Source of the DNA: an uncultured Gammaproteobacteria bacterium
GTDB taxonomy: Bacteria; Patescibacteriota; Patescibacteriia; 2-12-FULL-60-25
Direction: 5' to 3'
NCBI GenBank assembly: GCA_964596245.1
Contig: CAZQSK010000005.1
Coordinates: forward strand, 42 to 64,041
DNA: 64,000 nt
Under the pieces are notes generated by a model, which searched no databases, was not told where the DNA came from, and saw only the letters and a list, made by a program, of their open reading frames with translations. A program made the translations under genes and the position numbers. Of this stretch, positions 9,001-52,020 are shown piece by piece. How positions within the stretch are numbered: the first letter of the stretch is position 1; every line of letters begins with the position of its first letter.

Positions 9001-9950
9001 AGGACGACTTCTACATCTATGTCGATGACAGCTCATCGACGAGCCAATACATCTCGACGAATGCTGATGGTTGGCAGGCTCAAACTAGCTACGACTTGGC
9101 TGAACGTTATTACTCAAATACCAAACTCGAAGCCGGTGATCTTGTGATGGCGAGCCGCGAGGGTAGCCTGGGCATTGAAAAGGCGAGTGGCGCGGCAACC
9201 ATTCTCGGCGTTGTCTCAACCAAGCCGGGTTTCTTGCTTGGACGCAATGCCAGCAACACCTATCCGATCGCCCTCGCCGGTCGCGTACCGACCAAGGTCT
9301 CGAACGAAAACGGCGAAATCAAGATCGGTGATCAACTCGGACTCTCCTCGACGCCGGGCGTGGCCGCCAAGGCCGTGGCTCCTGGCCCGACCTTCGGTGT
9401 GGCGCTTGAAGATTATTCCGGCGGAACAGCTGGCACGATCGAAGTCTTCATCAAGTCGGGCGTTATTCTCGGCCCGGCCGCAGAGCCGGTGCTAACGCTC
9501 ACCGCTCCATCAACCAACGAACATGAATATGAACGCAGCGGCTTGGCATTAATCGAAGCGGGCCTGAAGCGCGTACACGTCTCCTACCAAAGCATTGGCG
9601 CCTGGCCGAAGGTGCTCGTCACGCCGCAAGGCGAAGCCGAAGGCGGCTGGTGGACGGAAAACTACAGCGACCTCGGCTTTGACATCATCTTGAAACAGGA
9701 GCAGACGCATGATGTGACCTTCTCATGGGAAGTGAAGCCCGTGTCCGACGGGGACCAAATCTTCCGCTCGGACGGACAATACGGACTCCTAAATCCAACC
9801 ACCGGACAACCCGCGGCAGGGTGGAGCACAGAAGAGGAGCCTGAACCGGAAGCTCCAAGCTCGACCGAGCCGATGGTCGAAACTCCGGAAGCTCCAAGCT
9901 CGACCGAGCCGATCGTAGAGACAGTAACATCAACCAGTACATCGGAATAA
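3..9950 (+). CDS. giant secreted/surface repeat protein (5' end cut by window edge): Thr-rich stalk repeats, two LVIVD-type beta-propeller blocks, duplicated C-terminal module
   Basis: One uninterrupted ORF runs from the window edge to TAA 9948-9950. The translation is Thr/Ser/Gly/Ala-rich with recurring 'LAQVT..GA.AT....GG....S.TVTSTFTVLG.TSLQN' and 'G..VCL..G.NCP' units. LVIVD-like blades ('G.YAY(I/V)...(L/F).(I/V)(V/I)D(I/V)S.P..P') occur at nt ~3980-4890 and ~7010-7890. A 'DLAE.Y...EAGDL(V/L)...G(I/V)VS..PGF.LG...AL.GRVP.K' module occurs twice (~8290-8670 and ~9090-9470). Confidence 0.9.
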   Translation: MATGTNCAATAGAQTLAQVTALGATATTTVSLFGGLVSASTTVTSTFTVLGDTSLQNVVAANATFTSVSTTNVYASGVVSTTQLFVNGRTVCLSTGTNCPAYLLIESDTLATVTGRGASTTLTLGLFGGFVAASSTVTSTFTVLGSTSLQNTTATTLFSPLASFTAATATAFASTFASSSQLYVAGQLVCLANGTNCTASGSGTSTNFWVWNGTIDLLRMMTSTTDLVLGSQVTTTGATAYFDLSGATKGTSTIYFGHGTNTNVVIGGTSTTQTGTLSNFLLDGNDLFVRGNIGSVTSVYTNAAFVAGDGINFLDYNGQTIGVGPTYYQNGLIRQNGTLFIVADADEANAVGGNIYLNAGNGKETLPNAGAIQFTAGTAGFGGAGGGIYILGGQSATTSASNGGEVQVIGGTGDSNGGAGDLILAGGEASSGLAGDVNIRGGVSAVDNRSGSIYLRPGTTDNVSATSASATFVLIESSADHDGAPPSLRFQELTSIGTNYVGFRAATSITGNTIWTLPDTSGVSGSAMILDTSNRLSFQTVCLASGVNCPAGIGTPSLAQVTNIGASATNTLQLFAGFLSSSSTVTSTFTVLGNTSLQNASATTLFSPLASFTAATATTFAAGSASTSQLRVAGQLVCLANGTNCTASGSGTSTNFWVWNGTSDYLRMMTSTTDLVLGAQATTTGATAYFDLAGATRGSSTVFFGFGTSTDVVIGGTSTTEIYLHEFFNLNGSGLFVNQNIGSASSVYSNGAFVAAGQMFSGVETYYGNGFIGRREGALDITTTGISVQPSINILAGPRASGSGGDITLRAGNGNGGSPGGNIYLTPGDSLGQPGHIYITPTSTSNQPELRFVSIGGGQVGLSAPNTAAIAAFVLPSVSGASNTVMATNGSGGLSFISVCLTDGTSCPASASNDTLATVTARGATATSTVRLYGGLTSASTTVTSTLTVLGGTSLQTATATNLYVTGSASTTALTVSYGTTGTPAIRFSGDENTGFVRSATDTIGIVTSSTINTVFGEGGVTTTNIAATNGAIFNVSTTVLTVTGQLVCLANGTNCPAGTGTPTLAQVTNQGASATNTLQLFAGFLSSSSTVTSTFTVLGNTSLQNVTGANATFTNATTTNLFSSAASFTNATATTLAASYTSTSQLYVAGQLVCLANGTNCVANGGSGTSTNHWVWNGTIDLLRMMTSTTDLVLGSQVTTTGAAAYFDLSGGTKGTSTIYLGHGTNTNVVIGGTSTTNTGLNSLFVMNGNDLFVNGNIGSVSSVYTNGAFVAGPGSTHYGNGFITKNDAGPLALSSVSGTTLNTSLEGAYNATSPLTLEATIPASDDPRFVRIQGDYAYIVNSGTVPTQLQIVDISNPRTPSTTAQLWLPGSSEWNDIDVSGNYVYYTDYGGGNFNVIDVSSPDRPFIVSTSTLTPSAIGGVRVSGNYAYLSSYSAGEIMVLDISNRANPVQIATVGGASAIWHMDIQGDYLYSMVWSGSTLYVHDISDPKNPLLLSSRTLSATIGSYSRIEVEGGYAYIFSSNGDNLAIVDVHDPVNPKEMYAATVAGVTSFRDFSVNGRYLYGVENANPAILHVIDVQDRNNPILVRSFPVAGHISASGIDVSGRHAVVLDGGGDQLSVVELGGIEATSLLAHSAELGQLNVTGRASFQNTLSVLSSISVGAGGLQSVGSLSVYASNTTSTFLGAVSTSRLIVNGRSVCLSSGTNCPTTETLATVTARGATATSTVRFYGGLTSASTTVTSTFTVLGGTSLQFVTATNVTTTNISASGTVSSTRFSASIGTVAAPAFSFAGSGDADTGFAQTLGAGTLSFVLDGAVGSYFTYTGSGANGLLRVGDGASNLPSYSFMNDTDTGLASSGTNKLALIAGGVKTLEIGPNGATTTNVTSTNLFVSGVVSTTSLFVNGFQACLSNGSNCPASSASLQTAYDTGRTVTTTASSTPILVRVPMNALDAGLGTAVIGTSSNNGVTLGRANINTETSFVAFGEVNNILGASSALAFYDHTNYAFAIKLFGQGGIANDQATFSLNDLDRTGSADSAAAGFDNQSSNSSTAVLTLRGGSNRMVQHVGNGSPEGSIYAARGSIFFNAGTAATGTQAYLKTNSNGVNGWIGIATTDMTQQALAQVTALGSSATATLNLYGGFVAASSTVTSTFTVVGLTTLGNVTATNVTSSNLKLGDKLRFTGTAIDADSIDASTGNFDVNATAGKINLSASDSMTLDSTASTISISANGLVSISSNTSGVTLNPADGSVITLGSSADFISFGGQVNSSIIPSSDLLFSLGSASLRWNGYFGNVTATNVTTTNFFATNASTTNLIAGTVTTSELILEQADLVEVGSFTPASTTQQIAYSGRYAYVSTGGGFIEVIDVADPTRPTSTTRIPTTATVGITRIQVVGKYLYVGTRTPDQLRVYDISKPNAPILIRVHPISNGTGDEGLEISGRYAYVLGIQHFNVIDIGNATSPLGSAVANFATGTSLGALQVEGNYAYIGHAAGMTILDISNPTSPSTTGYFQGGSITELEINGRYAYLADGTGSLIRIVDLKDPTLPTQVGSISTGSAPSSLRLAGKYLYVGEATGIFGIQVFDVSSSTNPILKKSFTTGNVTVDLAVNGRYLYTAQQTNGFRVIDTQGIDSPSANIGSLNVGALSVDMDAVLGHSLNVRGSVSIGSGLLSNGPIGVFASSSNPAASFVNATGSASSWGAYANRLLVGNSPSATGTANWNMVLSYTTSASNGGLCIDDTNTANTCPSAAGGASIAADGPITADRFDLAEMYSMSGAAEAGDLLMLDSAASSTVKISDGTPYNSRVIGIVSSAPGFILGWSGDVQVALTGRVPAKAAMTNGVIRVGDALVSSNIPGYVMKATKPGTIVGYALGDLNATGTVETFVSVGYWAGNVLTTDGTDTRIQDNLVIAPTSTATALNPFVDSYGITFRGSSWDASSTSAVNRDFTLLTDIVSATTSFLSARSASGTNLFTLDEAGTLRLTGDVALMGRIYPSARGSFQDDFYIYVDDSSSTSQYISTNADGWQAQTSYDLAERYYSNTKLEAGDLVMASREGSLGIEKASGAATILGVVSTKPGFLLGRNASNTYPIALAGRVPTKVSNENGEIKIGDQLGLSSTPGVAAKAVAPGPTFGVALEDYSGGTAGTIEVFIKSGVILGPAAEPVLTLTAPSTNEHEYERSGLALIEAGLKRVHVSYQSIGAWPKVLVTPQGEAEGGWWTENYSDLGFDIILKQEQTHDVTFSWEVKPVSDGDQIFRSDGQYGLLNPTTGQPAAGWSTEEEPEPEAPSSTEPMVETPEAPSSTEPIVETVTSTSTSE
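327..830 (+). repeat. intragenic ~0.5-kb repeat, copy 1 of 3 (within giant gene)
   Basis: Encodes 'TLATVTGRGAS...QLVCLANGTNCTASGSGTSTNFWVWNGTIDLLRMMTSTTDLVLGSQVTTTGATAYFDL...NVVIGGTSTTQTG'. It aligns by eye to copies 2 and 3 at both protein and nucleotide level. Confidence 0.85.
1671..2165 (+). repeat. intragenic ~0.5-kb repeat, copy 2 of 3
   Basis: Encodes 'SLAQVTNIGASATNTLQLFAGFLSSSSTVTSTFTVLGNTSLQN...QLVCLANGTNCTASGSGTSTNFWVWNGTSDYLRMMTSTTDLVLGAQ...DVVIGGTSTTE'. Confidence 0.85.
3192..3725 (+). repeat. intragenic ~0.5-kb repeat, copy 3 of 3
   Basis: Encodes 'TLAQVTNQGASATNTLQLFAGFLSSSSTVTSTFTVLGNTSLQN...QLVCLANGTNCVANGGSGTSTNHWVWNGTIDLLRMMTSTTDLVLGSQ...NVVIGGTSTTNTG'. Confidence 0.85.
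9846..9923 (+). repeat. 2 x 39-nt tandem repeat at the 3' end of the giant gene (PEAPSSTEP(M/I)VET x2)
   Basis: 'ccggaagctccaagctcgaccgagccgat' is repeated exactly with a 39-nt period, starting at 9846 and 9885. Confidence 0.9.
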
Positions 9951-11041: not shown

Positions 11042-11116
11042 GGCGTGGTAGCCAAGTGGTAAGGCAGGAGTCTGCAAAACTCCTATGCGCGGGTTCAATT
11101 CCCGCCCACGCCTCCA
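11042..11116 (+). tRNA. tRNA-Cys (anticodon GCA), CCA encoded
   Basis: Hand-folded cloverleaf: acceptor GGCGTGG/CCACGCC, anticodon stem GGAGT/ACTCC with loop CTGCAAA, T arm GCGGG-TTCAATT-CCCGC, discriminator T, then CCA. Confidence 0.9.
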
Positions 11117-29621: not shown

Positions 29622-30323
29622 ATGGCCTTCGTCTCAAAGCGTGTACAGGCTGCAGGCCGTCTTGGCCCCGATCTGATTGATTTGCGTGAACGCGTAGGTT
29701 TGAGTATTTCCGAAGCCGCGCAACGCACAAAGATCGCGCCGTCCATTATTAAAGCCTTTGAAGAAGAAACGTGGAGCGAATTGCCGGATCAGGTGTATGC
29801 CGAACGCCTGCTGCGCTCCTACGTTTCTTTTTTTGGTGCCAACGACTCTTACTATCTTCACAAGTTTCGTGAATCACTGGAGGCGCGTGAAATTGTCCGT
29901 GATACATCGGTTTTGTTGCCGCGCGCCATGCGCATCGGTGCACATGAGCTGATCGTGACGCCGCGTGTTCTCGCGGCCCTTGCGTTCTTTGTTTTTACGC
30001 TCGGGCTGGGTGGCTATGTGTATGCGCAAGCGCGCGCGATGTCGGTGGCGCCTCCGCTTGAAATCGTTTCGCCATCTGACGGCCAACGCTTGGATGAACC
30101 GGCTATTTTAGTGACTGGACATACGGCCCCGGGCTCTTCCGTGACCGTGAATGGTGCCGCCGCCGTTGTCGGAGATGATGGGCGCTTTGAATATCGGATG
30201 AATGTACCGCGCGGTTCGACCGTGATTCGTATCGTGTCGCGCCGACGTCACGGAAATGAGTCGACCATCGCACGTCGCGTGATTTACGATCGTCCTCCGG
30301 CGGCGCAAGCATTGCACGAGTAA
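29622..30323 (+). CDS. RodZ-like HTH (Xre-type) membrane protein
   Basis: N-terminal HTH 'LRERVGLSISEAAQRTKIAPSIIKAFEEE', a central TM helix, and a C-terminal beta-rich domain. Confidence 0.7.
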   Translation: MAFVSKRVQAAGRLGPDLIDLRERVGLSISEAAQRTKIAPSIIKAFEEETWSELPDQVYAERLLRSYVSFFGANDSYYLHKFRESLEAREIVRDTSVLLPRAMRIGAHELIVTPRVLAALAFFVFTLGLGGYVYAQARAMSVAPPLEIVSPSDGQRLDEPAILVTGHTAPGSSVTVNGAAAVVGDDGRFEYRMNVPRGSTVIRIVSRRRHGNESTIARRVIYDRPPAAQALHE

Positions 30324-30348
30324 AAAAATAGACCGCGTATTAGCGGTC
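30322..30348 (-). terminator. rho-independent terminator of the small two-gene unit (minus strand)
   Basis: Hairpin gaccgc-gtatta-gcggtc (30331-30348). On the minus strand it is followed by TATTTTTTT, and the stop codon TAA lies in the loop. Confidence 0.7.
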
Positions 30349-30495
30349 GGAGGGGCGGCGGGTCTTCTTGGAGACCAGTCGCATGAGGGTGCCCGGGTTG
30401 CTGGGCTTGCTGGGCAGATGATCTGCGATCCAGTTGAGCAGTGAGGGGGTCACTGCCAGGCCGAAGAGGGTGAGCAGGATGCCGGTGAGCATCAT
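30340..30495 (-). CDS. small membrane peptide (51 aa), GC-rich ORFan
   Basis: 'MMLTGILLTLFGLAVTPSLLNWIADHLPSKPSNPGTLMRLVSKKTRRPSDR': one TM helix plus a basic tail. Nearly all third positions are G/C. The ATG overlaps the upstream stop (ATGA, 30492-30495). Confidence 0.65.
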   Translation of the reverse strand: MMLTGILLTLFGLAVTPSLLNWIADHLPSKPSNPGTLMRLVSKKTRRPSDR

Positions 30496-30674
30496 GCAGC
30501 ATCCGGGGGCTGGGTGTCGCGGTCCTTCATCGACACGGGTGTCGGGGGCGGCGTGCTCGACAGCCTGCGCAGCAGCTGGAGCTCCTCCTCCGGGATCACC
30601 TGAGTCTTGGTGGTCGCGATCTCGTCGTCCGTAGACAACGAGGGTTTGGAACGTGCGATCTTGCGTTCGGTCAC
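30492..30674 (-). CDS. small hydrophilic protein (60 aa), GC-rich ORFan
   Basis: GTG 30674 is preceded by 'AAGGGAG' with a 5-nt gap. High GC3. Translationally coupled to the downstream peptide gene. Confidence 0.6.
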   Translation of the reverse strand: MTERKIARSKPSLSTDDEIATTKTQVIPEEELQLLRRLSSTPPPTPVSMKDRDTQPPDAA

Positions 30675-30711
30675 TGGTTCTCCCTTGTTCGCCGTCCGAA
30701 GACGGGCTATC

Positions 30712-30740
30712 AACGTACCATAAAGTCGTTATTTTGTCCA
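30712..30740 (-). promoter_or_regulatory. promoter TGGACAAAA-..-TACGTT for the small two-gene unit
   Basis: Minus strand reads TGGACA (30740-30735), a 17-nt spacer, then TACGTT (30717-30712). It sits in an AT-rich patch inside the GC-rich island. Confidence 0.4.
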
Positions 30741-30762
30741 GTTTGCTGGACTTTTTTGGATT

Positions 30763-30818
30763 TGAAGACGCGCCCCGTGCTTTTTCCGAAGAATCTCGGA
30801 TTGGCACGGGGCGCGGTC
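30763..30818 (-). terminator. long GC-rich hairpin immediately after the 30821-31555 gene (no U-run)
   Basis: Arms gacgcgccccgtgc / gcacggggcgcggtc (one bulge) enclose an inner tccga/tcgga stem. It starts 3 nt after the stop codon. Confidence 0.55.
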
Positions 30819-30820
30819 AT

Positions 30821-31555
30821 TCAGGTGTCCGGCCAGTAGCGCTTGGCGAGCGCTTCCAGATCCGGGAGCATGGCCGTCGTGACGTCGAGCAGGTTCGAGA
30901 GGAACCCGTTCGTCAGCCAGATGGCGATGCCGACGCGATTCGGCTTGATGGTGACGAACCCGTCCTTGTCCGGCTTGTGGTCCGGAATGTCGGGCAGGCT
31001 CGCCATCCACAGCTCGATCGAGCCCTTCGCGTTTGTCCGCATCTGATAGTAGCGGGCGCGTCGGGGCGTGGTGTGCGGGGCGATGATGAGGGGGTGTTCC
31101 GGCGACTGCAGAGCCTCGATGAGGCGGCTCCAGCGGAAGTCGAAGCGGTTGACGCGTCTCCCGACGCGTGGGTGACCTTGCGGTCCGAGCGGGATCGGAC
31201 GCATCGCGTACATGGACGGGGAGATCGGCTGATCACCCTCGCCCAGGTACTTGATGATGCTTCCGTCCGTACCCGGCGCGTGGCCACCTTGCAGGTAGCT
31301 CACGTACCGCTCGGCGAGCCCGTCGAGCTTGAGCTCGTACGGATCCTTCACGAGCTCTTCCTCGAAGAGGTCGAGCTCGATGATTGGATCCACCTCGCCC
31401 TCGCTGTTGAGAGCCGGAACGATCCAGACCTGATGCAGCCACATGGCTGCGAGCTCGTCCGTGGACCACGGCATGCGCAGTCGCGGAACCCACATCTGCT
31501 GTGCGAGGGCCCTGATGGCCCGCGCACGAGTCGTCTTCTTCTCGTCGTCGGCCAT
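30821..31555 (-). CDS. hypothetical protein (244 aa), GC-rich ORFan
   Basis: AAGGAGG lies 4 nt upstream of ATG 31555 ('MADDEKKTTRARAIRAL...'). High GC3. No motif recognised. The track ORF extends to 31615. Confidence 0.7.
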   Translation of the reverse strand: MADDEKKTTRARAIRALAQQMWVPRLRMPWSTDELAAMWLHQVWIVPALNSEGEVDPIIELDLFEEELVKDPYELKLDGLAERYVSYLQGGHAPGTDGSIIKYLGEGDQPISPSMYAMRPIPLGPQGHPRVGRRVNRFDFRWSRLIEALQSPEHPLIIAPHTTPRRARYYQMRTNAKGSIELWMASLPDIPDHKPDKDGFVTIKPNRVGIAIWLTNGFLSNLLDVTTAMLPDLEALAKRYWPDT

Positions 31556-31816
31556 ATGGCCTCCTTCTTGTTGATGAACGTTCGGGGACATCCGGACAAA
31601 CCTGGAGGTCAACACTTAACACCAAAAGGTGGTTCGCGTTGGGCGAGAACCGCGTTAGGAGCGTCCAGCAAAAGCCGGAGACTGATCGCGGAGAGGATCG
31701 CCGGTCCTCCAAGTGTGTCGGGATGTCCGACTCGGAATCCAAGTTGCCTTGGGTGCCGAGGAGACACGAGCTCAGACCGAGTAGGTCCGAGCTCAAGAGT
31801 CTGAGTGGGAGGGGGG

Positions 31817-32395
31817 TTAGCCCTCTACGGGTTCGGTCTGGCGAATGGTGATCCATCCGCCGGTAACCGGAATGCGTGTGAAGTCGGTGATCGCGCGTTC
31901 GCTGGTACCCCAGTGAACCGGGATGGTCTGCACGTTGCTGACGCCGCCCGGAAGGATGTCCCAGCCGGAGACGGTCTCGAGAATCTCGACCGTCAGGTTC
32001 CGGCTGTCGCGCGCGACTTCAACGCGCAGGTCCCAGTGCATGCAGATCGACGAGGCGTACGACATGCGTACTTGCTCGTATCCTGCCGCGATGGTTCCTG
32101 CCGATCCGTCCGCGTGAACGCGAGACGAGAGCGTGGGCAGCTGGTGACGACTTCCGAGGAAGCCGCCCCACACGCCCGCCGTCGGGTCGCCGTGTCCGTA
32201 GTTCGGGTCGACCGTGAAGGTGACCCGGAGCGGAAGCACGCCGGTGGCGGCGCGTTCGCGATCGCTCATGTTGATCTCGTCGGCTTCGTGAGCCAGATGA
32301 GTCGCCGCGGCGCCGAAGTCGGCGCTGTAGGCTTGCCACAGGGTCACGAGCAGGAAGACGCTGATCGAGCGGTACAAGATCGTTCGCGGTCGCAT
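31817..32395 (-). CDS. secreted hypothetical protein (192 aa), GC-rich ORFan
   Basis: GGGAG lies 8 nt upstream of ATG 32395. Signal peptide 'MRPRTILYRSISVFLLVTLWQAYSA'. High GC3. Confidence 0.7.
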   Translation of the reverse strand: MRPRTILYRSISVFLLVTLWQAYSADFGAAATHLAHEADEINMSDRERAATGVLPLRVTFTVDPNYGHGDPTAGVWGGFLGSRHQLPTLSSRVHADGSAGTIAAGYEQVRMSYASSICMHWDLRVEVARDSRNLTVEILETVSGWDILPGGVSNVQTIPVHWGTSERAITDFTRIPVTGGWITIRQTEPVEG

Positions 32396-32511
32396 GATGT
32401 TGACTCCCGCCCCGCATCGCTGCGGAGCATGAAATGTACAAACCCGTCTTGGTAGACGGTAGGGAGAGATTCCCGTTCTCGAGCATCAAGGGTTGATGAC
32501 CGGGAACGGGT

Positions 32512-32567
32512 CAGGAACGCGTGACGAATCACGCGCTCCTGCCAGGTTAGTTGTTGTTGGTTGGGGG
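32512..32567 (-). repeat. intergenic module copy (stop - C/A-rich tract - CCUGG - hairpin, read on minus strand)
   Basis: Plus strand shows hairpin 32512-32541 (13-bp stem, 1 mismatch), gCCAGG 32541-32546, then the G/T-rich tract 'ttagttgttgttggttggggg' up to stop 32568. Confidence 0.6.
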
Positions 32568-33002
32568 TTAGGCCGCGGCCGTGTCGACGTCGATCTCGAT
32601 CTCATCGTTTCCGATGAGAACGGCGATCTCGCGATCGGTACGCGGGAGCGGGTTGTGGAGGAGGCTGTACGCCACGGCGGCGTCCAACTCCTCACGCGAC
32701 GGGATCGGCTTGGCCTTGGGGGCCGTGCCGAGGATCGTGTCGTCGAGCAGACGCGTGAACGACTGCTCGAAGGACTGCTCGGCCTCGCGATCGAAGGACT
32801 GGATGTCCCAGATCAGGCCGCAGGCCGCATCGAGCTCGAGGCGGATCTCCTCGAGCTCGCGCTCGGCTTCGGCGATGAGGCCGAGCTTGGCGATCTCGAG
32901 CGCGGTCCGCTTGCGCGGCGTCTCGTCGAACGAGATCGGCAGAGTGCCGCAGCGCGAGCTGATCTCGTCGTATCCCATGGTGGGGAAGAGCGAAAGGTTC
33001 AT
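32568..33002 (-). CDS. acidic hypothetical protein (144 aa), GC-rich ORFan
   Basis: GAGG lies 6 nt upstream of ATG 33002 ('MNLSLFPTMGYDEISS...'). High GC3. The track ORF extends to 33041. Confidence 0.6.
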   Translation of the reverse strand: MNLSLFPTMGYDEISSRCGTLPISFDETPRKRTALEIAKLGLIAEAERELEEIRLELDAACGLIWDIQSFDREAEQSFEQSFTRLLDDTILGTAPKAKPIPSREELDAAVAYSLLHNPLPRTDREIAVLIGNDEIEIDVDTAAA

Positions 33003-33112
33003 GACTGACCTCGTGGTTCGGGGAAGAAACATCCGTATCATCCAGAGCGTTCACGGAAGAAGTACCGTGTCGCCCAAATCGATGATCGAGAGACTCAATC
33101 GGCGATTGGGGC

Positions 33113-33210
33113 GGACGTCGCAGGCAGGTTTGTATCCCGCGCCGCGACGTCCCAGGGGTATGTAGTTGAAGGTTCGGAATGTCCGGGTTGGTTGCCGTTT
33201 GGTGGGAATG
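33113..33210 (-). repeat. intergenic module copy (hairpin - CCAGG - G/T-rich tract on plus strand)
   Basis: Hairpin ggacgtcgc...gcgacgtcc (33113-33152), CCAGG 33152-33156, then 'ggtatgtagttgaaggttcggaatgtccgggttggttgccgtttggtggg'. It shares 'gttgaaggttcgg' with the 34434-34489 copy. Confidence 0.55.
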
Positions 33211-33290
33211 GCGTTCGTGAGCCCCGTTGGGGTCTATCGAACCGCTCATCCGTTGTGGCAACACTGGTCCCTCATCATTCCGTTGCGGAC

Positions 33291-33899
33291 CTACTCGGCC
33301 GCGACCGGCTCCGGCTGCGCCTTGCGGCGCGCGCTCGCCCGCTTCGGCTTCGCCGGCGCGGTGAGCTTGCGCAGCTCCGCCATGAGGCTCTCGAGCTTCT
33401 CCGTGGGGAGGCGCTCGAGGCTCGTCGGCGTGCGCGGGAGCTTGTCCTCGGTGACGCCGCGGTCCTTGAGGACGCGGCGCGTCGAGAGCAGGAGCTCGCG
33501 GTAGGTCTTCACAGCCTCCCGCTGCGCCGCCTGGCGGTCGAGCTTGCTCGCGAGCGCGCTCACCACGGGGGCGAGGCGCTTGCTCTTCTCGGCATCGGCC
33601 TCGAGGGCCGCCTGCGTGTCCGCCGCGGCCTTGGCCTCGGCGTCCGCCTTGTTGGCGTCCTCGCACTCCTGCGCGATGGCCGCGTAGCTCATGCCGAGGA
33701 ACTGGAGCTCCTCGAGGCCGAGCTTGGTGAAGCCTTCGGGGAGCTTCACGCGATCCGCCTCCGCGACGCCGCGGGAGCGCTGCAGCGCGTACGCCCGCCG
33801 CTCCGCCTTGTGGGCGGCCTGGCGCGCGTCGTGCAGGATCTTGTCCTGCTGCTGCTTCGCGGCCTGAGCGACGACGTTGAGGTTGGTGATCGTGAGCAT
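33291..33899 (-). CDS. coiled-coil-like hypothetical protein with basic C-tail (202 aa), GC-rich ORFan
   Basis: AGGAGA lies 5 nt upstream of ATG 33899 ('MLTITNLNVVAQAAKQQQDK...KPKRASARRKAQPEPVAAE'). Ala/Glu/Lys/Arg-rich. The track ORF extends to 34109. Confidence 0.65.
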   Translation of the reverse strand: MLTITNLNVVAQAAKQQQDKILHDARQAAHKAERRAYALQRSRGVAEADRVKLPEGFTKLGLEELQFLGMSYAAIAQECEDANKADAEAKAAADTQAALEADAEKSKRLAPVVSALASKLDRQAAQREAVKTYRELLLSTRRVLKDRGVTEDKLPRTPTSLERLPTEKLESLMAELRKLTAPAKPKRASARRKAQPEPVAAE

Positions 33900-34216
33900 G
33901 GCACTCTCCTGGCTTGTCGTTTCGGTTTCGTTGGTTACGGGAACATCCCCGCAACGCCCATCTCGATGGCCGATCAAAAGTATCGGCGCCCGGGATGGGC
34001 GTGCGTGAGCACGCCCGTGTGAAGGTGCCCCGTCCGATATGATCAGACGGAAGGATGTAGGGACGAGGGAGAATGGCCGGCCGAAGCAAGACATTTCTCC
34101 GAAGGACAATTCAATTGGGATTGGCAGATTGCTCCGCCGTGCCCGACTTCGTTGTCCGCATCATCCGTTCCCATGTTCGGGTTCGGAATGATGTTCGCCC
34201 TCCACATCGCTCCATC

Positions 34217-34367
34217 CAACATTTTGGAGGCGGAAATGGTCCACCTGGCCCGAAGGCCCGCAGATCCGCACCAGCCTTGGTCGAACGATCCCAGTCGAAA
34301 CCGAGTTCGAACGATTCAGGCTGGAGTTGAGACGTATTACTACGGCTCGTCCTCCTCCAAAATGTTG
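34217..34367. ncRNA. candidate structured RNA: 14-bp perfect inverted repeat enclosing nested stems, in a ~590-nt gene-poor spacer
   Basis: CAACATTTTGGAGG 34217-34230 pairs with CCTCCAAAATGTTG 34354-34367. Inner complementary pairs are cagcct/aggctg, tcgaac/gttcga and ggcc-cgaa-ggcc. Strand and function are unknown. Confidence 0.35.
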
Positions 34368-34433
34368 TATGCAGCGAACGGTTGAAAGATCAGCAGCAGA
34401 GTCCGATGGTTGGATCGGCCTCTTGTGCTGATC

Positions 34434-34489
34434 GGCGAGTGAGTTCACTCGCCGCCAGGGTTAGGGTTGAAGGTTCGGGGTGTAGTTGG
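34434..34489 (-). repeat. intergenic module copy (stop - C/A-rich tract - CCUGG - hairpin, read on minus strand)
   Basis: Plus strand shows hairpin ggcgagtg-agtt-cactcgcc (34434-34453), CCAGG 34455-34459, then 'gttagggttgaaggttcggggtgtagttggt' up to stop 34490. Confidence 0.6.
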
Positions 34490-34837
34490 TCAGGAGGCGA
34501 GGGCCTCCGGGGTCTCGTCGATCATCTCGGCGGCGCGCGCGTTGCGTGCGCGGGTGAGGCCCGCGAGCACACGCTTGGTCGCAGCGACGATCGTGGCGTA
34601 GGGGCGCTCCTCGTTGTGCATCGTGCACACGATGAGGATGGCCTCGGCGCGCTCCTTCTCCACGCCGCTGAGGCTCTCCACGGGGCGCTGCATGAGCTCC
34701 TCGCAGTTGAGCGCCGCGATGAGGTCCTCGGCGTTGATCGCCTTGAACTCCATCTCGGTGCACTTGCCCTGGCGGATCGATGCGTGCTCGAGAGCCTTCT
34801 CGAGCGTCTTCGTGAGCAGATCCTTCTTCTTCGACAT
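34490..34837 (-). CDS. hypothetical protein (115 aa), GC-rich ORFan
   Basis: ATG 34837 has GAGG ~10 nt upstream. High GC3. 'MSKKKDLLTKTLEKALEHASIRQGKCTEMEFKAINAEDLIAALNCEELMQ...'. Confidence 0.65.
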   Translation of the reverse strand: MSKKKDLLTKTLEKALEHASIRQGKCTEMEFKAINAEDLIAALNCEELMQRPVESLSGVEKERAEAILIVCTMHNEERPYATIVAATKRVLAGLTRARNARAAEMIDETPEALAS

Positions 34838-34884
34838 TTCTCGGTACCTCGTGCTGTTGGATGTGGATGGTGCGTGATGCAGCG

Positions 34885-35070
34885 CTAGCGCCGCACCTTC
34901 TTCTTCCGGTTCGGGCGGCTGCTGACCGAGCTCGACCCGGTCATCACGTAGCGCGTGGACGGCTGCGCGATCTGACGATCGCGATCCTTCCGCATGCTCA
35001 GGGCCCGCTCCACGTCCTCGTCGGACGTGCAGTACGTACCACCGACCGTGATCAGGTTCTTCTGACTCAT
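34885..35070 (-). CDS. small basic-tailed protein (61 aa), ORFan
   Basis: ATG 35070 follows 'GGGGTGAAGAG'. 'MSQKNLITVGGTYCTSDEDVERALSMRKDRDRQIAQ...RPNRKKKVRR'. The track ORF start (35175) is the TTG of the promoter -35 hexamer. Confidence 0.5.
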   Translation of the reverse strand: MSQKNLITVGGTYCTSDEDVERALSMRKDRDRQIAQPSTRYVMTGSSSVSSRPNRKKKVRR

Positions 35071-35146
35071 CTCTTCACCCCGAAAGGTGCTGGATCCCGG
35101 ATTCCGCTCAGAACCACCTGAGACGGTTTCCAGAATCGAACGGGCT

Positions 35147-35175
35147 AGGATAACATAAAAAGAGGGTTTTGTCAA
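35147..35175 (-). promoter_or_regulatory. promoter TTGACAAAACCC-..-TATCCT driving the first genes of the eight-gene island
   Basis: Minus strand reads TTGACA (35175-35170), a 17-nt spacer, then TATCCT (35152-35147). The first 12 nt are identical to the promoter at 43672. Confidence 0.5.
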
Positions 35176-35382
35176 GGGTTGCAGGACAGCGTTATCTAGA
35201 TTAAATGCGCTACAATTAGCGACAAATATAGATCATTGTTAAAATTGTCTAAAATTAGCCAACAGCAAATTGGCTTAGTTGAGCTATCAATGGGGATAAG
35301 AAGATTCAAGATTGGGTTCAAAAATAGCGGTTTTGGCTCAGATCAGCGTTTTTTGACAAAAGTGCCTCAGATTCGCATTCCC

Positions 35383-35411
35383 TTGACGCCACCTATATCT
35401 ATTGTTAGAAT
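35383..35411 (+). promoter_or_regulatory. promoter TTGACG-17-TAGAAT upstream of rpoB (long leader)
   Basis: TTGACG 35383-35388 and TAGAAT 35406-35411. The rpoB ATG is ~275 nt downstream. Confidence 0.5.
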
Positions 35412-35510
35412 CAGCCCACAACAGTGCGATTTGACAGATGCTTTCCGAGCATCTATCGGACGGTTTCCGGACAACCGATCCAACATGAGCGACCAAACCC
35501 ACAATTGAAG

Positions 35511-35545
35511 CTCCTCCCGTAACCCCCGTTGGGAGGTGTTTTGAT
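35511..35545 (+). terminator. weak hairpin + U-tract in the rpoB leader (possible attenuator)
   Basis: ctcctccc...gggaggtg (6-7 bp, one mismatch, 12-nt loop), followed by 'ttttg'. Confidence 0.3.
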
Positions 35546-35686
35546 GTCTGAGTCGTTCCGTCATTCCACTGTCTTTTATCCATTTCAACCCTGCTGCGTT
35601 TCTGCTCGGTCACTGGCGCCATCGGCCGTCATGTCTCCGTTGCTAAGTCCCGTGCGGACGCAGAAAACAGGGTTCGCATCATCCCC

Positions 35687-38600
35687 ATGTCAGCGATGCA
35701 ATTCCGCCGCCAAGCTCCGAAAGAAGCTGAGCGACGCTATTTCACGGCCGCGCGCGACGCTATGGCGTTGCCCGACCTGATCGAGATCCAGAAGACCAGC
35801 TACCGCTGGTTCCTGGAAGAGGGTATCCGCGAGTTGCTTAAGGAGATTTCGCCGATCAAAGATTTTATCGGTCGTGATCTTGAATTGCACTTCGTCGATT
35901 ATTATTTCGACGAACCGAAGTTCGACGAAAAAACGTCGAAGGGCAAGAACGTCAACTACGAATCGCCGTTGCGCGTGAAGTTGAAGTTGATCAATCGCCG
36001 CACGAAAGCGGAAAAGGAATCCGAAGTGTATCTCGGTGACCTTCCGCTCATGACCGATCGCGGTACGTTCATCGTGAACGGTATTGAGCGTGTCGTCGTG
36101 TCGCAGCTCGTGCGCTCGGCCGGTGCCTTTTTCACCGCCGAAGCCATGCATGGACGCCGCTACTACGGCGCGAAAATCATTCCGAACCGCGGTGCGTGGT
36201 TGGAATTCGAAACCGACGGCAACAACGTGTTGTGGGTGAAGATCGATCGCAAGCGCAAAGTCGCCGCGACCGCGCTTTTGCGTGCCTTCGGTATCGGTTC
36301 AAGCGAAGACATTTCCAAATTGTTCACCGATGTCGACGTGCATCCGATGAACAAGTACATCGAAGCCACCTTGGCCAAGGACATCTCCACCAATGAGGAG
36401 GAGGGCTACATCGAAGTCTATAAGCGCATCCGCCCGGGTGATCTTGCGACGTCTGATAACGCCAAGTCGTTGATCCATTCGATGTTCTTTAACTTCGATC
36501 GTTATGACCTGGGTCCGGTCGGTCGTTACAAGTTCAACAAGCGTTTCGGTTTGACCACCGAGCACGCGATTATTTCGCAAGAAGAGAATCGCATTCTCAC
36601 TAAGGAAGACTTGATCCACATCTTGCGCGAGTTGATCCGCTTGAACGTGGCTCAGGAAGAACCGGATGACGTGGACCACTTGGGTAACCGTCGCGTGCGT
36701 GCCGTTGGCGAGCTCGTGCAGAGCCGTTTCCGCATCGGTCTCGCTCGTATGGAGCGCATCGTGAAGGATCGTATGTCCACGATGGACATCGACCAGCTCA
36801 ACCCGGCGAAGCTCATCAACGCCCGCCCGGTGATCGGCGCGGTGCGTGAATTCTTCATGAGCTCGCAGTTGTCGCAGTTCATGGATCAGACCAACCCGTT
36901 GTCCGAGCTCGAACACAAGCGCCGTTTGTCCGCGATGGGTCCGGGGGGCCTCACGCGTGAACGCGCCGGCTTCGACGTTCGTGACGTGCATCGCACGCAC
37001 TACGGCCGCATTTGTCCGATTGCTTCTCCGGAAGGTCCGAACATCGGTCTTGTGGGTCACTTGTCCTGTTACGCGCGCATCAACGACTACGGCTTCATCG
37101 AAGCTCCGTATCGTGCCGTGAAGAACTGGGCCAAGAACGACGGCAAGGACGCGGTGGGGGAGGTCTTGCGTGTCGATGTAACCGCCGGTGACGGCAAGGT
37201 CGTCGCCAAGGCAGGTGAAGAGGTTGATAAGAAGCTGGCCGAAAAGCTCGCCAAAGTTTCGATTGATAAATTGCCGGTAGTACCGAGCGTGTCCGGCGAG
37301 ATCGTGTACCTCAACGCCTTCACCGAAGAGCGTGGGACAACGGCTCCGGCCACCACTCCGATCGGTCGCGATGGAAAATTCCTCGTCGAACGTGCTGCCG
37401 CTCGTAAGAACGGAGAGCCGACGGTCGTAGACGTGCATGAGATCGACTATGTCGACGTCTCTTCGAAGCACATTCTTTCCATTGGTACGTCGTTGATTCC
37501 GTTCGTCGAACACGACGACGGTCACCGCGCGCTCATGGGAACGAACATGCAACGTCAGGCCGTTCCGTGTGTGAAGCCGGATGCCCCGATTGTCGGTACC
37601 GGTGTTGAACGCCGCGTCGCCGTGGACTCGGGTCACGCCGTGATCGCATCTGAAGACAGCGTGGTCGTGTCCGTTTCCGGTAAGCACGTCGAATTACAGT
37701 CTTTGGAAGACAAGAAGATTCGCCGTTATGATCTCGTAAAATTCTCGCGCTCCAACCACTCCACGTGTTTGAATCAGCGCCCGGTTGTATCAAAGGGCCA
37801 GAAAGTATTTGCCGGCGAAGTACTCGTCGACGGTACGTCGTGTGAACGCGGTGAACTCGCTCTCGGTCAGAACTTGCTTTGCACGTTCTTGTCTTGGGAT
37901 GGGTACAACTACGAAGACGCCATTATTCTGTCCGAGCGTCTCGTGCACGCCGATCGCTTCACCTCGATTCATATCGAGCATCATGTCATCGACGTGCGTG
38001 ACACCAAGCTTGGTCCGGAAGCCGTGACGAGCGACATTCCGAACGTGTCCGAAGAAAAGCTTCGCAACCTCGATGAGCACGGGATCGTGCGCATTGGTGC
38101 CGAAGTGAAGTCGGGCGACATTCTCGTGGGTAAGATCACGCCGAAGGGTGAAACGGATTTGTCCGCCGAAGAAAAACTCTTGCGCGCCATTTTCGGTGAA
38201 AAGGCCCGCGACGTGCGCGACAGCTCGTTGTACCTCGAGCACGGTGAGAAGGGTAAGGTCATCGACGTCAAAACGTTCTCGCGCGATGCCGGCGACAAGC
38301 TGCAGCCGGGCGTCTTGAAGCAGATCGTCGTCACCGTTGCCGATCTTCGTAAGATTCAGGTGGGCGACAAGCTCGCCGGTCGTCACGGGAACAAGGGTGT
38401 TATTTCGAAGATCGTGCCTGTCGCTGACATGCCGTTCTTGGAAGATGGCACGCCGGTCGACATTATTTTGTCACCGCTCGGTGTCGTGTCACGTATGAAC
38501 CTCGGCCAGATTCTCGAAACCCACTTGGGTCTCGCAGCCAACGCCTTGGGTTACATGGTGGCCACGCCTGTGTTCGACGGTGTTCCGGAAGACACGATTC

Positions 38601-48273: not shown

Positions 48274-48867
48274 TTACGGGTAGATCAGATAGTGAGCGGC
48301 GATGCCGTTCGGACCGAAGTACTGCTCGCTGTAGAGCCGTACCGTCCCGAACGTCTCGTTCAGCATTCGCTCGAGCTCGACCTGGTGGTCGGAGATCGTC
48401 GCGATGTGCTCGTTGTACGTCTCGCCCGCGACGAGAATCGGCGCGATCAGGATGAACGCGCCTCTCTTGGGCTTGAGCATCTTGCGGATGCGCTTGAGCA
48501 TGCCCGGCTTGTCCTTCATGAAGGCGAAGACGAGCTTCATCGTGATGAGATCGAATCGGCCTTTTGGCTGGAACCGCTCCACATCGGCGAGGCGGTACTC
48601 GATGAAGCCGACCTCGGCAACCGTCTTCTTGGCCTGCTCGATCGCGACGGGTGACATGTCGACCGCCGTGACGTCGAAGCCGAGGCGTGCGAGCTGGCGA
48701 GCGAAGTCACCAGTCCCGCAGCCGAGCTCGAGTGCCCTGGTGCCGTTCATACGGCCTTGCAGAGTCGCCTCATCATGCATCCGATGGAGGAGGAGGGTGC
48801 TGACGTTGGGGTAGTCGCGACCCTCCAGGTAGTTTACGTCCCAGTAACCTGGGGAATGATGTTCCAT
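48274..48867 (-). CDS. class I SAM-dependent methyltransferase (GC-rich)
   Basis: Motif I 'ALELGCGTGDFARQLARLGFDVTAVDMS'. GGGAG lies 6 nt upstream of ATG 48867. Confidence 0.85.
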   Translation of the reverse strand: MEHHSPGYWDVNYLEGRDYPNVSTLLLHRMHDEATLQGRMNGTRALELGCGTGDFARQLARLGFDVTAVDMSPVAIEQAKKTVAEVGFIEYRLADVERFQPKGRFDLITMKLVFAFMKDKPGMLKRIRKMLKPKRGAFILIAPILVAGETYNEHIATISDHQVELERMLNETFGTVRLYSEQYFGPNGIAAHYLIYP

Positions 48868-51255: not shown

Positions 51256-51972
51256 CTAGTAGGCCGCGGCCATCTCCTCAAGGATGGTCTGTGCGGCGGT
51301 GCGCGGGTCGAGCGCTTCGAGGATCGGGCGTCCGACGACGATGTGCCCGCCGCCGCGCTGCGCCTTGATCGCCATGCTCGGCGTCATCACGCGCTTCTGA
51401 TCGCTGAGGGTACCGTCTGCCGGACGGATGCCAGGGGTGATCGGGATCAGTCCGAACCCCTTGCTCATGATCTCCTCCACTTCGAGCGGGGAGCAGACCA
51501 CGTGCGAGACGCCTGCCTCGACCAGCATCTCGCACATGGCGAGGGTGGTCGCAAGCGGGCTGTTGCCGTAGATGCGGCGACACGCGCTGTTGTCGAGCGA
51601 GGTGAGCACGGTGACGCCGATCACGCGCGTCTTGCCAGCATGGTCGACCGCCGCCTTGAGCGAATCCGGCCCGCAGCCCGCCATGACGGTCACGCCCCAG
51701 ACGTCGAGCGCCTCGACCCCCTTCATGGCGCCCTTGATGGTGTTGGGGATGTCGTTCAGCTTCAGATCGAGCATGATCTGCGCCGAGATGTTGGCCTGCC
51801 GGATCGTGTTCACGGCCCGGGGAGCCCCGATGTGCGTCACGAGCTCGAGGCCGATCTTCAGGTTGTTCGCCAGCCCTTCGAGGGTGCGGGCATGCCGCAC
51901 GGCCCCTTCGATCGTTGGAACATCCAGGGCGACGATCAGGTCGTCCTGCGCTTCTACGAACCTTGTATTCAT
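51256..51972 (-). CDS. pyrF: orotidine 5'-phosphate decarboxylase (GC-rich)
   Basis: AGGAGG lies 4 nt upstream of ATG 51972. Contains 'IVALDV', 'DLKLNDIPNT' (DxKxxDIxxT) and 'VVGRPI'. The track ORF start (52020) is the TTG of the -35 hexamer. Confidence 0.85.
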   Translation of the reverse strand: MNTRFVEAQDDLIVALDVPTIEGAVRHARTLEGLANNLKIGLELVTHIGAPRAVNTIRQANISAQIMLDLKLNDIPNTIKGAMKGVEALDVWGVTVMAGCGPDSLKAAVDHAGKTRVIGVTVLTSLDNSACRRIYGNSPLATTLAMCEMLVEAGVSHVVCSPLEVEEIMSKGFGLIPITPGIRPADGTLSDQKRVMTPSMAIKAQRGGGHIVVGRPILEALDPRTAAQTILEEMAAAY

Positions 51973-51991
51973 GGAACCTCCTTGCGGCCGC

Positions 51992-52020
51992 ATTGGATCG
52001 GTTTTCGCGGTTTTTGTCAA
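51992..52020 (-). promoter_or_regulatory. promoter TTGACAAAAA-..-TCCAAT for pyrF (weak -10)
   Basis: Minus strand reads TTGACA (52020-52015), a 17-nt spacer, then TCCAAT (51997-51992). Confidence 0.35.

Follow-up and report, generated by a model that had tools for sequence, protein, structure and literature searches.

Covarying RNA domains in a probably vertically inherited cluster of ORFan genes beside rpoB of Candidatus Uhrbacteria

The described systems that come closest to the locus reported here are of four kinds. Riboswitch-type leaders, including tandem aptamers (the glycine riboswitch) and orphan candidates recognized solely by comparative genomics, share with it multi-helix junctions of ~160 nucleotides (nt), compensatory base pairs, and invariant junction nucleotides. 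Stem-loops concerned with processing or stability occur between the cistrons of polycistronic mRNAs, for example at the RNase III sites of the phage T7 early region and in the puf, pap, and malEFG-type segments. Structured leaders are also found in ribosomal-protein and RNA-polymerase operons (the L10 leader and the rplL-rpoB attenuator), and genomic or defense islands and integron cassette arrays (clusters of attC sites lacking integron-integrases, CALIN) resemble the locus in their compositional anomaly, their small same-strand ORFans, and the structured sequence between their open reading frames (ORFs). The locus is a cluster of eight ORFan genes and three RNA domains, which lies on the minus strand at positions 30322-35175 of a 64,000-nt stretch of DNA (the window, always taken at its full length), between a rodZ-like gene and rpoB. 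It is interpreted here as a pair of operons that is probably inherited vertically, is limited to one Candidatus Uhrbacteria clade, and carries cis-acting RNAs. Bacteria of the candidate phyla (Patescibacteria) are uncultured and have tiny genomes with very many genes of unknown function.

A set of three previously undescribed RNA folds of ~160 nt with strong covariation, the domains B, B2, and A in their 5' to 3' order (Table 1), is the most solid and novel content of the locus. The initial annotation of the window had described the spacers between the genes as unusually long for an operon and full of strong hairpins. The lengths it gave (146, 261, 172, 288, 590, and 47 nt) were recovered exactly, and the hairpins were borne out by the minimum free energy (MFE), for which the four long spacers (590, 288, 172, and 261 nt) gave z scores of -9.1, -3.8, -7.0, and -8.1 against dinucleotide shuffles. 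The view of these intervals as oddly long operon spacers had to be given up: they hold the three covarying domains, which are the best-conserved part of the cluster. Contigs of relatives with which the window was compared are cited below by their L numbers. A covariance model of domain B (R1) scored 130-172 bits in 12 distinct sequences and 30-56 bits on the opposite strand, and found the domain once in the window, once in every relative, and in metagenome fragments; these scores and the G-U pairs place the RNA on the minus strand. Among 10 distinct sequences of domain B, 25 of 49 pairs were compensatory and 94.9% of the cells were paired, vs 29-53% with slid partners. Its interior comprises a variable GNRA-capped hairpin, a long UUCG hairpin (GGUUUCGACUGGGA), and a second UUCG hairpin. 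Coding is excluded in the core of domain B because indels of 1 and 2 nt occur there, and a small ORF in the 590-nt spacer (58 amino acids (aa), called in L002) was rejected for the same indels. A transfer-messenger RNA or tRNA-like element, suggested by the sequence of the long UUCG hairpin, was also rejected, ARAGORN and Rfam both being negative.

Domain B2 was supported by 22 compensatory pairs out of 46 in 10 sequences (89.9% paired vs 36-46% slid), and R1 matched its position weakly in L006 and L010. The model of domain A (R2) recognized 11 distinct sequences, among them L010, L011, and L013, at 52-172 bits, and 24 of the 47 pairs of this domain were compensatory, with 95.3% paired vs 32-44% slid. 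Paralogy of A and B was rejected for the window, where R1 gave A only 6-8 bits. The AUG in the closing helix of A was rejected as an alternative start of the downstream gene g244, since L006 has ACG in its place and in L007 it is not in frame. Rfam 15 at gathering scores returned only two tRNAs in the window, and at E<=1 no match was obtained on A, B, or B2 in the window, L008, L010, or L030. Six viral contigs in IMG/VR matched RNA sequence patterns, none of which was confirmed by the covariance models. The hairpins of the g144-g192 spacer share their position with those of relatives, and their sequence is conserved only within subclades.

Rates of divergence were measured between the window and L002/L003 (ENA contigs of ~87% nucleotide identity with the whole cluster in place), using K for noncoding sequence and synonymous (dS) and nonsynonymous (dN) divergence for genes. 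K was 0.006 for domain A, 0.051 for domain B, 0.035 for the g244-g60 spacer, and 0.077 for the whole 590-nt spacer; two other long spacers had K of ~0.15. The flanking recA, ftsK, and rodZ genes had dS of 0.67-0.99 and dN of 0.013-0.022, and the cluster genes had dS of 0.16-0.50 and dN of 0.064-0.127. The RNA domains diverge 10-100 times less than the silent sites of the flanking genes, and the cluster proteins evolve ~5 times faster than the adjacent housekeeping proteins. In pairwise comparison with L002, parts of the spacers were 96-100% identical vs 65-98% (mostly 75-95%) per 100 nt in the ORFs, and in blastn searches between species it was mainly the noncoding blocks that aligned, with few and weak coding matches. 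Between L030 and L006, identity was 91.6% over the 479-nt B+B2 leader, 93% over rpoBC, and 78.5% over rodZ-ftsK-recA, and the adjoining coiled-coil-like ORF could not be aligned. By these sequence comparisons, A, B, and B2 were shown to rank with the slowest-evolving parts of the locus and to match rpoB in their degree of conservation.

The rodZ-like neighbor, used as a query, retrieved six GTDB species representatives, labeled Candidatus Uhrbacteria or Patescibacteria (one labeled Gammaproteobacteria), and by this relatedness the host is identified as a Candidatus Uhrbacteria (Patescibacteria) bacterium. In all six representatives, 4.9-8.4 kb (the slot) separate recA-ftsK-rodZ from rpoB-rpoC, and this interval is filled with minus-strand ORFs whose G+C content at third codon positions (GC3) is 0.74-0.97. 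The same layout was found in L002/L003, L028, L030, and L032, the last three of which were reached through homologs of g192, so that the slot was present in 10 of the 10 related genomes examined. L010 (CAYZVS010000001.1), which is labeled as an uncultured Gammaproteobacteria bacterium, has the recA-ftsK-rodZ-slot-rpoB synteny and the two RNA domains in common with the Uhrbacteria genomes, and this label is probably wrong. The conservation of gene neighborhood, which had been proposed as a check, was found in the order of the gene families, identical in 8 of the 10 genomes. It runs from the promoter through a g61-like basic peptide, g115 (in some genomes only), RNA domains B and B2, a coiled-coil-like protein, an acidic protein, a protein with a transmembrane (TM) segment and a beta-sandwich, RNA domain A, and a g244-like protein to a Pro-rich peptide (PP[ED]AA), a TM peptide (RRR), and the convergent rodZ. 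In the most distant relatives (L010, L011, and the fragment L013) most of the protein families are unrecognizable, and the two RNA domains and the general layout persist. Identity to the window among relatives was 82-89% for RecA, 88-93% for RpoB, 71-84% for FtsK, and 62-75% for RodZ; between species, the cluster proteins reached 26-31% (g244 and g192), 43% (g115, in L009), and 55% (g61, in L006). Because the slot and the gene order are shared by related genomes, the cluster is taken to have been inherited and not inserted. It had been annotated as an island that interrupts an expected housekeeping context, which was not supported; the rodZ-to-rpoB slot with these genes is present in all 10 related genomes.

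The composition of the cluster would suit a horizontally acquired island, or a decayed prophage, plasmid, or defense system, from a high-GC donor. Its G+C content is 0.60-0.67 vs ~0.54 in the remainder of the window, the GC3 of its genes is 0.80-0.98 vs 0.55-0.75 in genes elsewhere, its codon use is like that of a generic high-GC organism and unlike that of the host rpoBC, and all of its proteins are ORFans; among the slot proteins of L010 and L011, a Pfam search gave one sub-threshold match, to DUF2786 (E=4.7e-4). Such an origin is nevertheless highly improbable and has been largely refuted. The slot and gene order are fixed in relatives, divergence tracks the host, and the promoters and leaders are of host type and conserved. 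The GC3 bias recurs in all species of the clade and therefore is not a fading signal of import; it is extreme even in the slot of L008, although the flanks there have a G+C content of 0.49, so it is maintained. No integrase, recombinase, phage, or other mobility gene was found among the eight proteins with Pfam, PHROGs, and NCBIfam, no tRNA lies within 19 kb (the nearest are at 11042 and 58456), and no long direct (att) repeats flank 30200-35800. Comparison with phage, plasmid, and defense databases, which the initial annotation had recommended, came back empty throughout: blastn of the cluster against phage and plasmid DNA and a search of IMG/VR viral contigs gave no match, PHROGs was negative, and the sole match in PADLOC-DB v2 (LmuB, E=0.96) was noise. 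The cluster also differs from integron cassette arrays and CALIN, having no IntI or attC-like repeats, spacers that do not form one repeat family, R1 and R2 in single copy in the window, promoters of its own, including internal ones, and a fixed gene order. It contains neither a reverse transcriptase domain nor a long pair of direct repeats, as a diversity-generating retroelement would. A literature search returned nothing relevant. From these searches, the cluster is considered to be undescribed and to be neither a mobile nor a defense island. Of the proposed 'undescribed system', then, the coherent multi-gene unit and its clade-confined families that match nothing known were upheld, and a phage, plasmid, or defense origin was not.

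The eight minus-strand ORFs (61, 115, 202, 144, 192, 244, 60, and 51 aa, by which the genes are named) were reproduced by ORF listing and inspection of start codons, with the same lengths, coordinates, and strand as annotated initially. A Logan assembly of the same organism (SRR8893623, 13.1 kb), analyzed with a separate gene caller, gave eight matching genes, the only difference being that the first gene begins at TTG 35175 and encodes 96 aa instead of 61. A chimeric assembly at the cluster is unlikely because this independent assembly links the cluster with both flanks. High-GC DNA yields long chance ORFs, of which a 383-aa plus-strand frame and a 465-aa alternative minus-strand frame are examples here, and no database homologs were found outside the clade; the ORFs could on these grounds be chance open frames in a GC-rich noncoding region. 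The probability of this is negligible. GC3 is 0.8-1.0 in precisely the proposed minus-strand frames, with GC1 > GC2, and the periodicity is lost in the spacers. All eight ORFs remain open in L002/L003, where indels are multiples of three and preserve the frame, and dN/dS is 0.18-0.57 for the seven genes that were measurable; for g144 it is only a less reliable first-pass estimate, further support coming from a homolog in L009. Families detectable by BLAST or HMM extend across species that lack alignable DNA in those ORFs, and Shine-Dalgarno (SD) sequences and start codons are conserved. Coding far beyond chance was thus shown by sequence criteria for the eight genes, which are considered real, and the chance-frame reading is taken as already refuted for g244, g192, g115, g144, and g61. 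The refutation is weakest for g60 and g51, whose BLAST-level homologs occur only in L002.

Further correspondence among relatives was seen by position. The only BLAST homolog of g61 is that in L006, and small ORFs resembling it (an acidic motif and a basic tail, in translations read by eye) lie at the matching position in L008, L009/L028, L011, and L032. Ala/Glu/Lys/Arg-rich ORFs of 208-310 aa, comparable to g202, occupy the matching position in relatives, and the motif F[DN]xEAExSFxxSF, also read by eye from translations, is present at the g144 position in the window, L028, L030, and L032. The start region of g60 (GTGA.CGAA) is invariant in aligned relatives, homologs of g60 finish in PP[ED]AA, and TM peptides with an RRR ending are found at the g51 position (both read by eye). 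No paralogs of the eight proteins exist elsewhere in the window.

Codon use in the cluster shows a blanket preference for G/C-ending codons (CTC, CGC, GGC, and GAG), whereas rpoBC prefers TTG, CGT, GGT, and GAA. High expression was rejected as the cause of the GC3 bias, since the codon preferences of rpoBC are not shared by the cluster. The codon shifts of the cluster and of rpoBC relative to other genes correlate with r=0.23 only, and translational selection of the host type therefore does not explain the bias. Synonymous divergence drops as GC3 climbs, from g60 (GC3 0.82, dS 0.50) to g202 (GC3 0.98, dS 0.16), with flanking genes at GC3 0.55-0.65 and dS 0.67-0.99, which indicates that changes to G/C are preferentially fixed at silent sites. 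The two candidate causes are gene conversion biased in this direction, at a hot spot of recombination, and selection for GC-rich mRNA. High GC3 is not unique to the ORFan cluster because two ordinary enzymes in the window, a class I methyltransferase (48274-48867, minus strand) and an orotidine monophosphate decarboxylase (51256-52020, minus strand), have GC3 of 0.84-0.85, well above their neighbors.

An alternative is that the slot is a hot spot at which variable surface or contact proteins recombine. Frequent homologous exchange between strains, anchored on the RNA elements, rpoB, and rodZ, would then diversify the proteins and produce the extreme GC3 through GC-biased gene conversion, and the RNA elements would act mainly as conserved DNA anchors. 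The rates would agree with this, dS in the cluster being 2-6 times below and dN 4-8 times above that of the flanks, with dS falling as GC3 rises; so would the alternation of conserved blocks with variable ORFs and the resemblance of g192 to an exported beta-sandwich protein. The proposal is judged rather improbable. Orthology and collinearity of the protein families do not fit shuffled cassettes, and the compensatory base-pair changes, which belong to one strand, mean that RNA structure and not DNA identity is under selection.

That no motif could be assigned to the proteins had been noted initially, and scans of all eight against Pfam, PHROGs, PADLOC, and NCBIfam again gave nothing above threshold. 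The descriptions of an acidic g144, a basic-tailed g202, an N-terminal hydrophobic helix in g192, a one-TM g51, and a coupled g60/g51 pair also held. Among 5.8 billion proteins the g244 family is represented by 5 clusters, and a collection of 1.84 billion contains 25 representatives of it; the g192 family has 18 clusters. Members of both families are without exception unnamed and devoid of Pfam domains, and all those for which the genomic context was looked up sit in the slot. Profiles of both families found no match in Pfam, PHROGs, or PDB, nor did a member-by-member search of PHROGs. Homology to well-known housekeeping families, which would have spoken against a novel system, was not found in the Pfam, NCBIfam, PHROGs, and PDB scans. 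Single-sequence PDB searches with g115, g202, and g144 returned only a non-significant ABC-ATPase-like stretch in g115, in which residues 28-94 faintly resemble the helical subdomain and LSGGQ region of ABC ATPases (..ESLSGVEKERAEAILIV..). Its scores were E=9e-4 for NCBIfam modC, far below the family cut-off, and E=0.29 for CbiO in PDB, and the LSG motif is lost in the L009 homolog; the stretch may be the relic of a gene fragment.

Of the structure-based searches that had been suggested, g192 yielded weak sandwich matches and the model of g244 failed. The AlphaFold2 model of g244 was unusable (predicted local distance difference test score, pLDDT, 34). That of g192 (pLDDT 63) has a helix at residues 3-40 and seven strands, and its matches in PDB were C2/Ig-like sandwiches only, the best being a weak one to a C2 domain (E=0.027, template modeling score 0.36-0.46); BFVD gave no match. 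The model is read as a generic beta-sandwich, for which homology to C2 domains is not established. With a beta-sandwich protein that is secreted or anchored, small TM peptides (one or two), and coiled-coil-like and acidic proteins among them, the proteins might form a module associated with the cell envelope, an assignment that is offered tentatively.

The position of the RNA domains favors a role in cis. An SD sequence and start codon follow the end of domain A at 14-45 nt in each of the 11 sequences. A TTGACA-17-TATxxT promoter stands immediately upstream of A in L010, L011, and L013, which places A at the extreme 5' end of the mRNA there, and a different gene (~165 aa) follows. Domain B lies downstream of the operon promoter, at a distance of 86 nt in L026 and of ~330 nt in L010 and L013; in the window, it comes after g61-g115 and two terminator-like hairpins. 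The coiled-coil-like ORF is always 190-360 nt downstream of B, and B2, where present, fills most of the interval. The features of leader RNAs, a covarying conserved structure and a 5' position on the sense strand (for B and B2, between the operon promoter and the coiled-coil-like gene), were both found. Cis-acting leader or intercistronic control elements are the most economical reading of the domains and are held to be a little more probable than all other readings together.

As in riboswitch-type leaders, the domains lie in the 5' untranslated region on the sense strand and are better conserved than the ORF downstream, A is kept before different genes, and B and B2 stand in tandem. They differ from such leaders in the lack of Rfam 15 matches at E<1 and of a recognizable terminator/anti-terminator platform, in the distance of 150-310 nt between B/B2 and the start codon, and in the ORFan genes, which give no metabolic clue. 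All three are closed by a helix that pairs an SD-like GGAGG with CCUCC, a further difference from these leaders, and these helices suggest an interplay with ribosome binding or a switch between anti-SD and SD. Opening and closing of the helix of A could free or mask the true ribosome-binding site. Alternatively, this helix could create a processing site of the RNase III type, closing helices of 15-22 base pairs (bp) being possible RNase III sites. Closing helices of this length, long folded spacers, and hairpins after each ORF of a single-strand multi-gene cluster are also what the locus has in common with processing and stability stem-loops; simple sites of that kind, however, need no conserved multi-helix interior and no invariant loops in it, the conservation observed here is far above that of generic stabilizers, and cleavage is only a candidate event. 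Since the RNAs stay constant while the proteins diverge beyond recognition, an invariant partner (a small molecule or ion, the ribosome, or an RNase) would be favored over autoregulation by operon-encoded proteins. Just past A (31556-31585 and relatives), the 5' strand of the closing helix recurs as a conserved CCCGGAC, which could pair with GUCCGG of the 3' strand (GUCCGG..CCGGAC), with compensatory changes in L032 and L010 as read from the alignment; this pairing could serve a switch as its alternative hairpin.

Leaders of ribosomal-protein and RNA-polymerase operons offer a comparison close at hand, since they are structured, accompany operons of small proteins beside rpoB, and rpoB here has a conserved leader of its own. 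The cluster differs from them in lying on the strand opposite to rpoB and being read away from it, in its fast evolution, and in a codon use unlike that of rpoBC; no ribosomal family was detected with Pfam or NCBIfam, as an operon of the rplKAJL type would require.

Several points weigh against the interpretation of the locus as operons with cis-acting RNAs and an envelope module. No ligand, protein partner, or classical expression platform has been identified for A, B, or B2, no intrinsic terminator follows A or B, and no anti-terminator was seen. The distance from B and B2 down to the g202 start is too great for a simple masking of the SD sequence. In the window, B sits behind terminator-like hairpins without a recognizable promoter of its own and may be reached only by read-through. 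The transcription units, the processing sites, and any separate accumulation of A, B, or B2 are all inferred from sequence. The envelope assignment draws on two of eight proteins with hydrophobic segments and on the mediocre model of g192, with its weak fold matches, the model of g244 having failed. All relatives come from one narrow clade, in which 'always present' stands for 10 genomes and fragments.

It was also considered that B+B2 (~330-480 nt), and perhaps A, could belong to a new large structured class of noncoding RNA that acts in trans or forms a ribonucleoprotein (RNP), either with the ORFan proteins or after cleavage from the mRNA. Large well-conserved RNA folds without an Rfam match are uncommon, and some later proved to be riboswitches, ribozymes, or RNP scaffolds. 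Conservation at the level of rpoB, above that of recA and ftsK, in two independent species pairs would accord with such an RNA, as would the complex multi-helix folds with GNRA and UUCG caps, the closing helix of 15-22 bp as a possible RNase III site, the terminator-like hairpins before B, and the persistence of the RNAs in three contigs (L010, L011, and L013) that no longer have detectable members of the g244 family or, as judged by profile search, of the g192 family. Against it, the domains have no promoter of their own and no terminator after B2, are always on the same strand as an ORF and upstream of it, and are present in single copy in 64 kb; the conservation extends to ~40 nt before the downstream start codon and then ends. 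A noncoding RNA of this kind is considered unlikely. Equally doubtful is the broader proposal that the locus encodes an unknown RNP or cell-surface apparatus of candidate-phyla bacteria, in which B+B2 and A would be components, ligand sensors, new orphan riboswitches, or a large structured RNA.

On the preferred reading as operons with cis-acting RNAs, a first transcription unit would start from the sigma-70-like promoter at 35175 and contain g61, g115, RNA domains B and B2, g202, g144, g192, RNA domain A, and g244, and a second would start from the promoter at 30740, contain g60 and g51, and finish at the terminator. Both promoters and the terminator at 30322-30348 had been proposed initially and were recovered at the two ends; the promoters are conserved in relatives, with the hexamers of the first invariant across a 7-species alignment and the region of the second conserved in L002, L006, L007, and L009. 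The sequence of the stem-loops after g115 is kept in 5 of 7 aligned species and recurs upstream of domain B in L024 and L032, and they look like a weak terminator or a processing or stabilizing element.

Table 1. Coordinates of the genes, RNA domains, spacers, and predicted transcription signals of the cluster
Feature	Position	Strand	Description
g61	34885-35070	-	Small basic protein, isoelectric point (pI) 10.6, C-terminal tail PNRKKKVRR; GC3 0.90; dN/dS 0.24
g115	34490-34837	-	Helical protein; GC3 0.94; 43% identity to L009 homolog
g202	33291-33899	-	Ala/Glu/Lys/Arg-rich, putative coiled-coil, basic tail; GC3 0.98, dS 0.16, dN/dS 0.55
g144	32568-33002	-	Acidic protein, pI 4.3; BLAST homolog in L009
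g192	31817-32395	-	N-terminal signal/anchor helix, then beta-sandwich domain (predicted); dN/dS 0.18
g244	30821-31555	-	Largest protein, without recognizable domain; dN/dS 0.23
g60	30492-30674	-	Pro/Thr-rich, GTG start, ends ..PPDAA; dN/dS 0.20
g51	30340-30495	-	One-TM peptide, basic C-terminus, maximum hydropathy 1.92; start overlaps g60 stop (ATGA)
RNA domain B	34211..34372	-	Four-helix junction of ~163 nt; 18-pair closing helix UUUUGGAGGAGG/CCGCCUCCAAAA
RNA domain B2	~34049..34212	-	Directly 3' of B; closed by GAUGUGGAGGG/CCCUCGYCCCUACAUC; hairpin GAACCCGAACAYGGGAAC and further UUCG hairpins
Rest of g202 leader	33900..34048	-	Three or four more hairpins, SD (CAGGAGAG), ATG; from MFE fold of 590-nt spacer
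RNA domain A	31576..31735	-	22-bp closing helix GACAUCCGGA..CUUGGAGG / CCUCCAGG..UCCGGAUGUC, two internal hairpin arms; ends 20 nt before g244 start
Spacer g202-g144	33003..33290	-	Structured, z=-3.8; K=0.152; alignable in part to L009
Spacer g144-g192	32396..32567	-	Three strong hairpins, z=-7.0
Promoter, first unit	35147..35175	-	TTGACA-17-TATCCT and upstream TG; consensus scan; divergent from rpoB promoter
Second promoter	30675..30740	-	TGGACA-17-TACGTT (30740-30712), 5' UUCG hairpin GCCCGUCUUCGGACGGC (30707-30691), SD GGGAG
Intrinsic terminator, second unit	30322..30348	-	Stem GACCGC..GCGGTC (30348-30331) and T-run; scan; convergent with rodZ-like gene
Long hairpin after g244	30770..30814	-	GCGCCCCGUGC...GCACGGGGCGC; terminator-like, without U-run; read from sequence and alignment
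Two adjacent stem-loops after g115	34383..34453	-	34434-34453 and 34388-34433, then CUUUCA; inverted repeat, MFE fold

Other features were recorded around the cluster. The rpoB promoter at 35383 on the plus strand (TTGACG-17-TAGAAT; 35383-35686 region) precedes a leader of ~275 nt that is nearly invariant relative to L002 (K=0.013). This leader contains an upstream ORF of 6-7 codons (35485-35508), whose start and stop, and not its peptide, are kept in seven species, and which directly abuts a hairpin (CCTCCC..GGGAGG) followed by TTTT in an attenuator-like arrangement. Between the divergent promoters, 35176-35382 is AT-rich (G+C content 0.375-0.40) and has TTAGC/GCTAA inverted repeats at 35207-35223 and 35255-35278; the palindrome is perfect in L011 (TTAGCCAAATTGGCTAA) and near-perfect in L010, where one central base differs. 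The repeats look like an operator common to rpoB and the ORFan operon. Beside recA, a bAvd gene (PF22296, an accessory protein of diversity-generating retroelements) was found in L032 (17036-17386) and L033 (8463-8813), and the window has a MopE-like gene at the bAvd position of that relative. An ORF of at least 3315 aa (3-9950, plus strand) runs off the start of the window.

If the RNAs are ordinary stabilizing leaders, the finding shrinks to a well-annotated lineage-specific operon. The covariance models R1 and R2 can be used for scanning all Patescibacteria genomes, and the RNAs are small enough for in-line probing against ligand libraries. With silent sites frozen at G/C and fast amino-acid change, the cluster is a natural test case for biased gene conversion vs selection on mRNA composition. 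The locus offers a compact foothold for comparative genomics, an operon that is fixed beside rpoB in the whole clade and whose proteins have no relatives elsewhere in billions of sequences.

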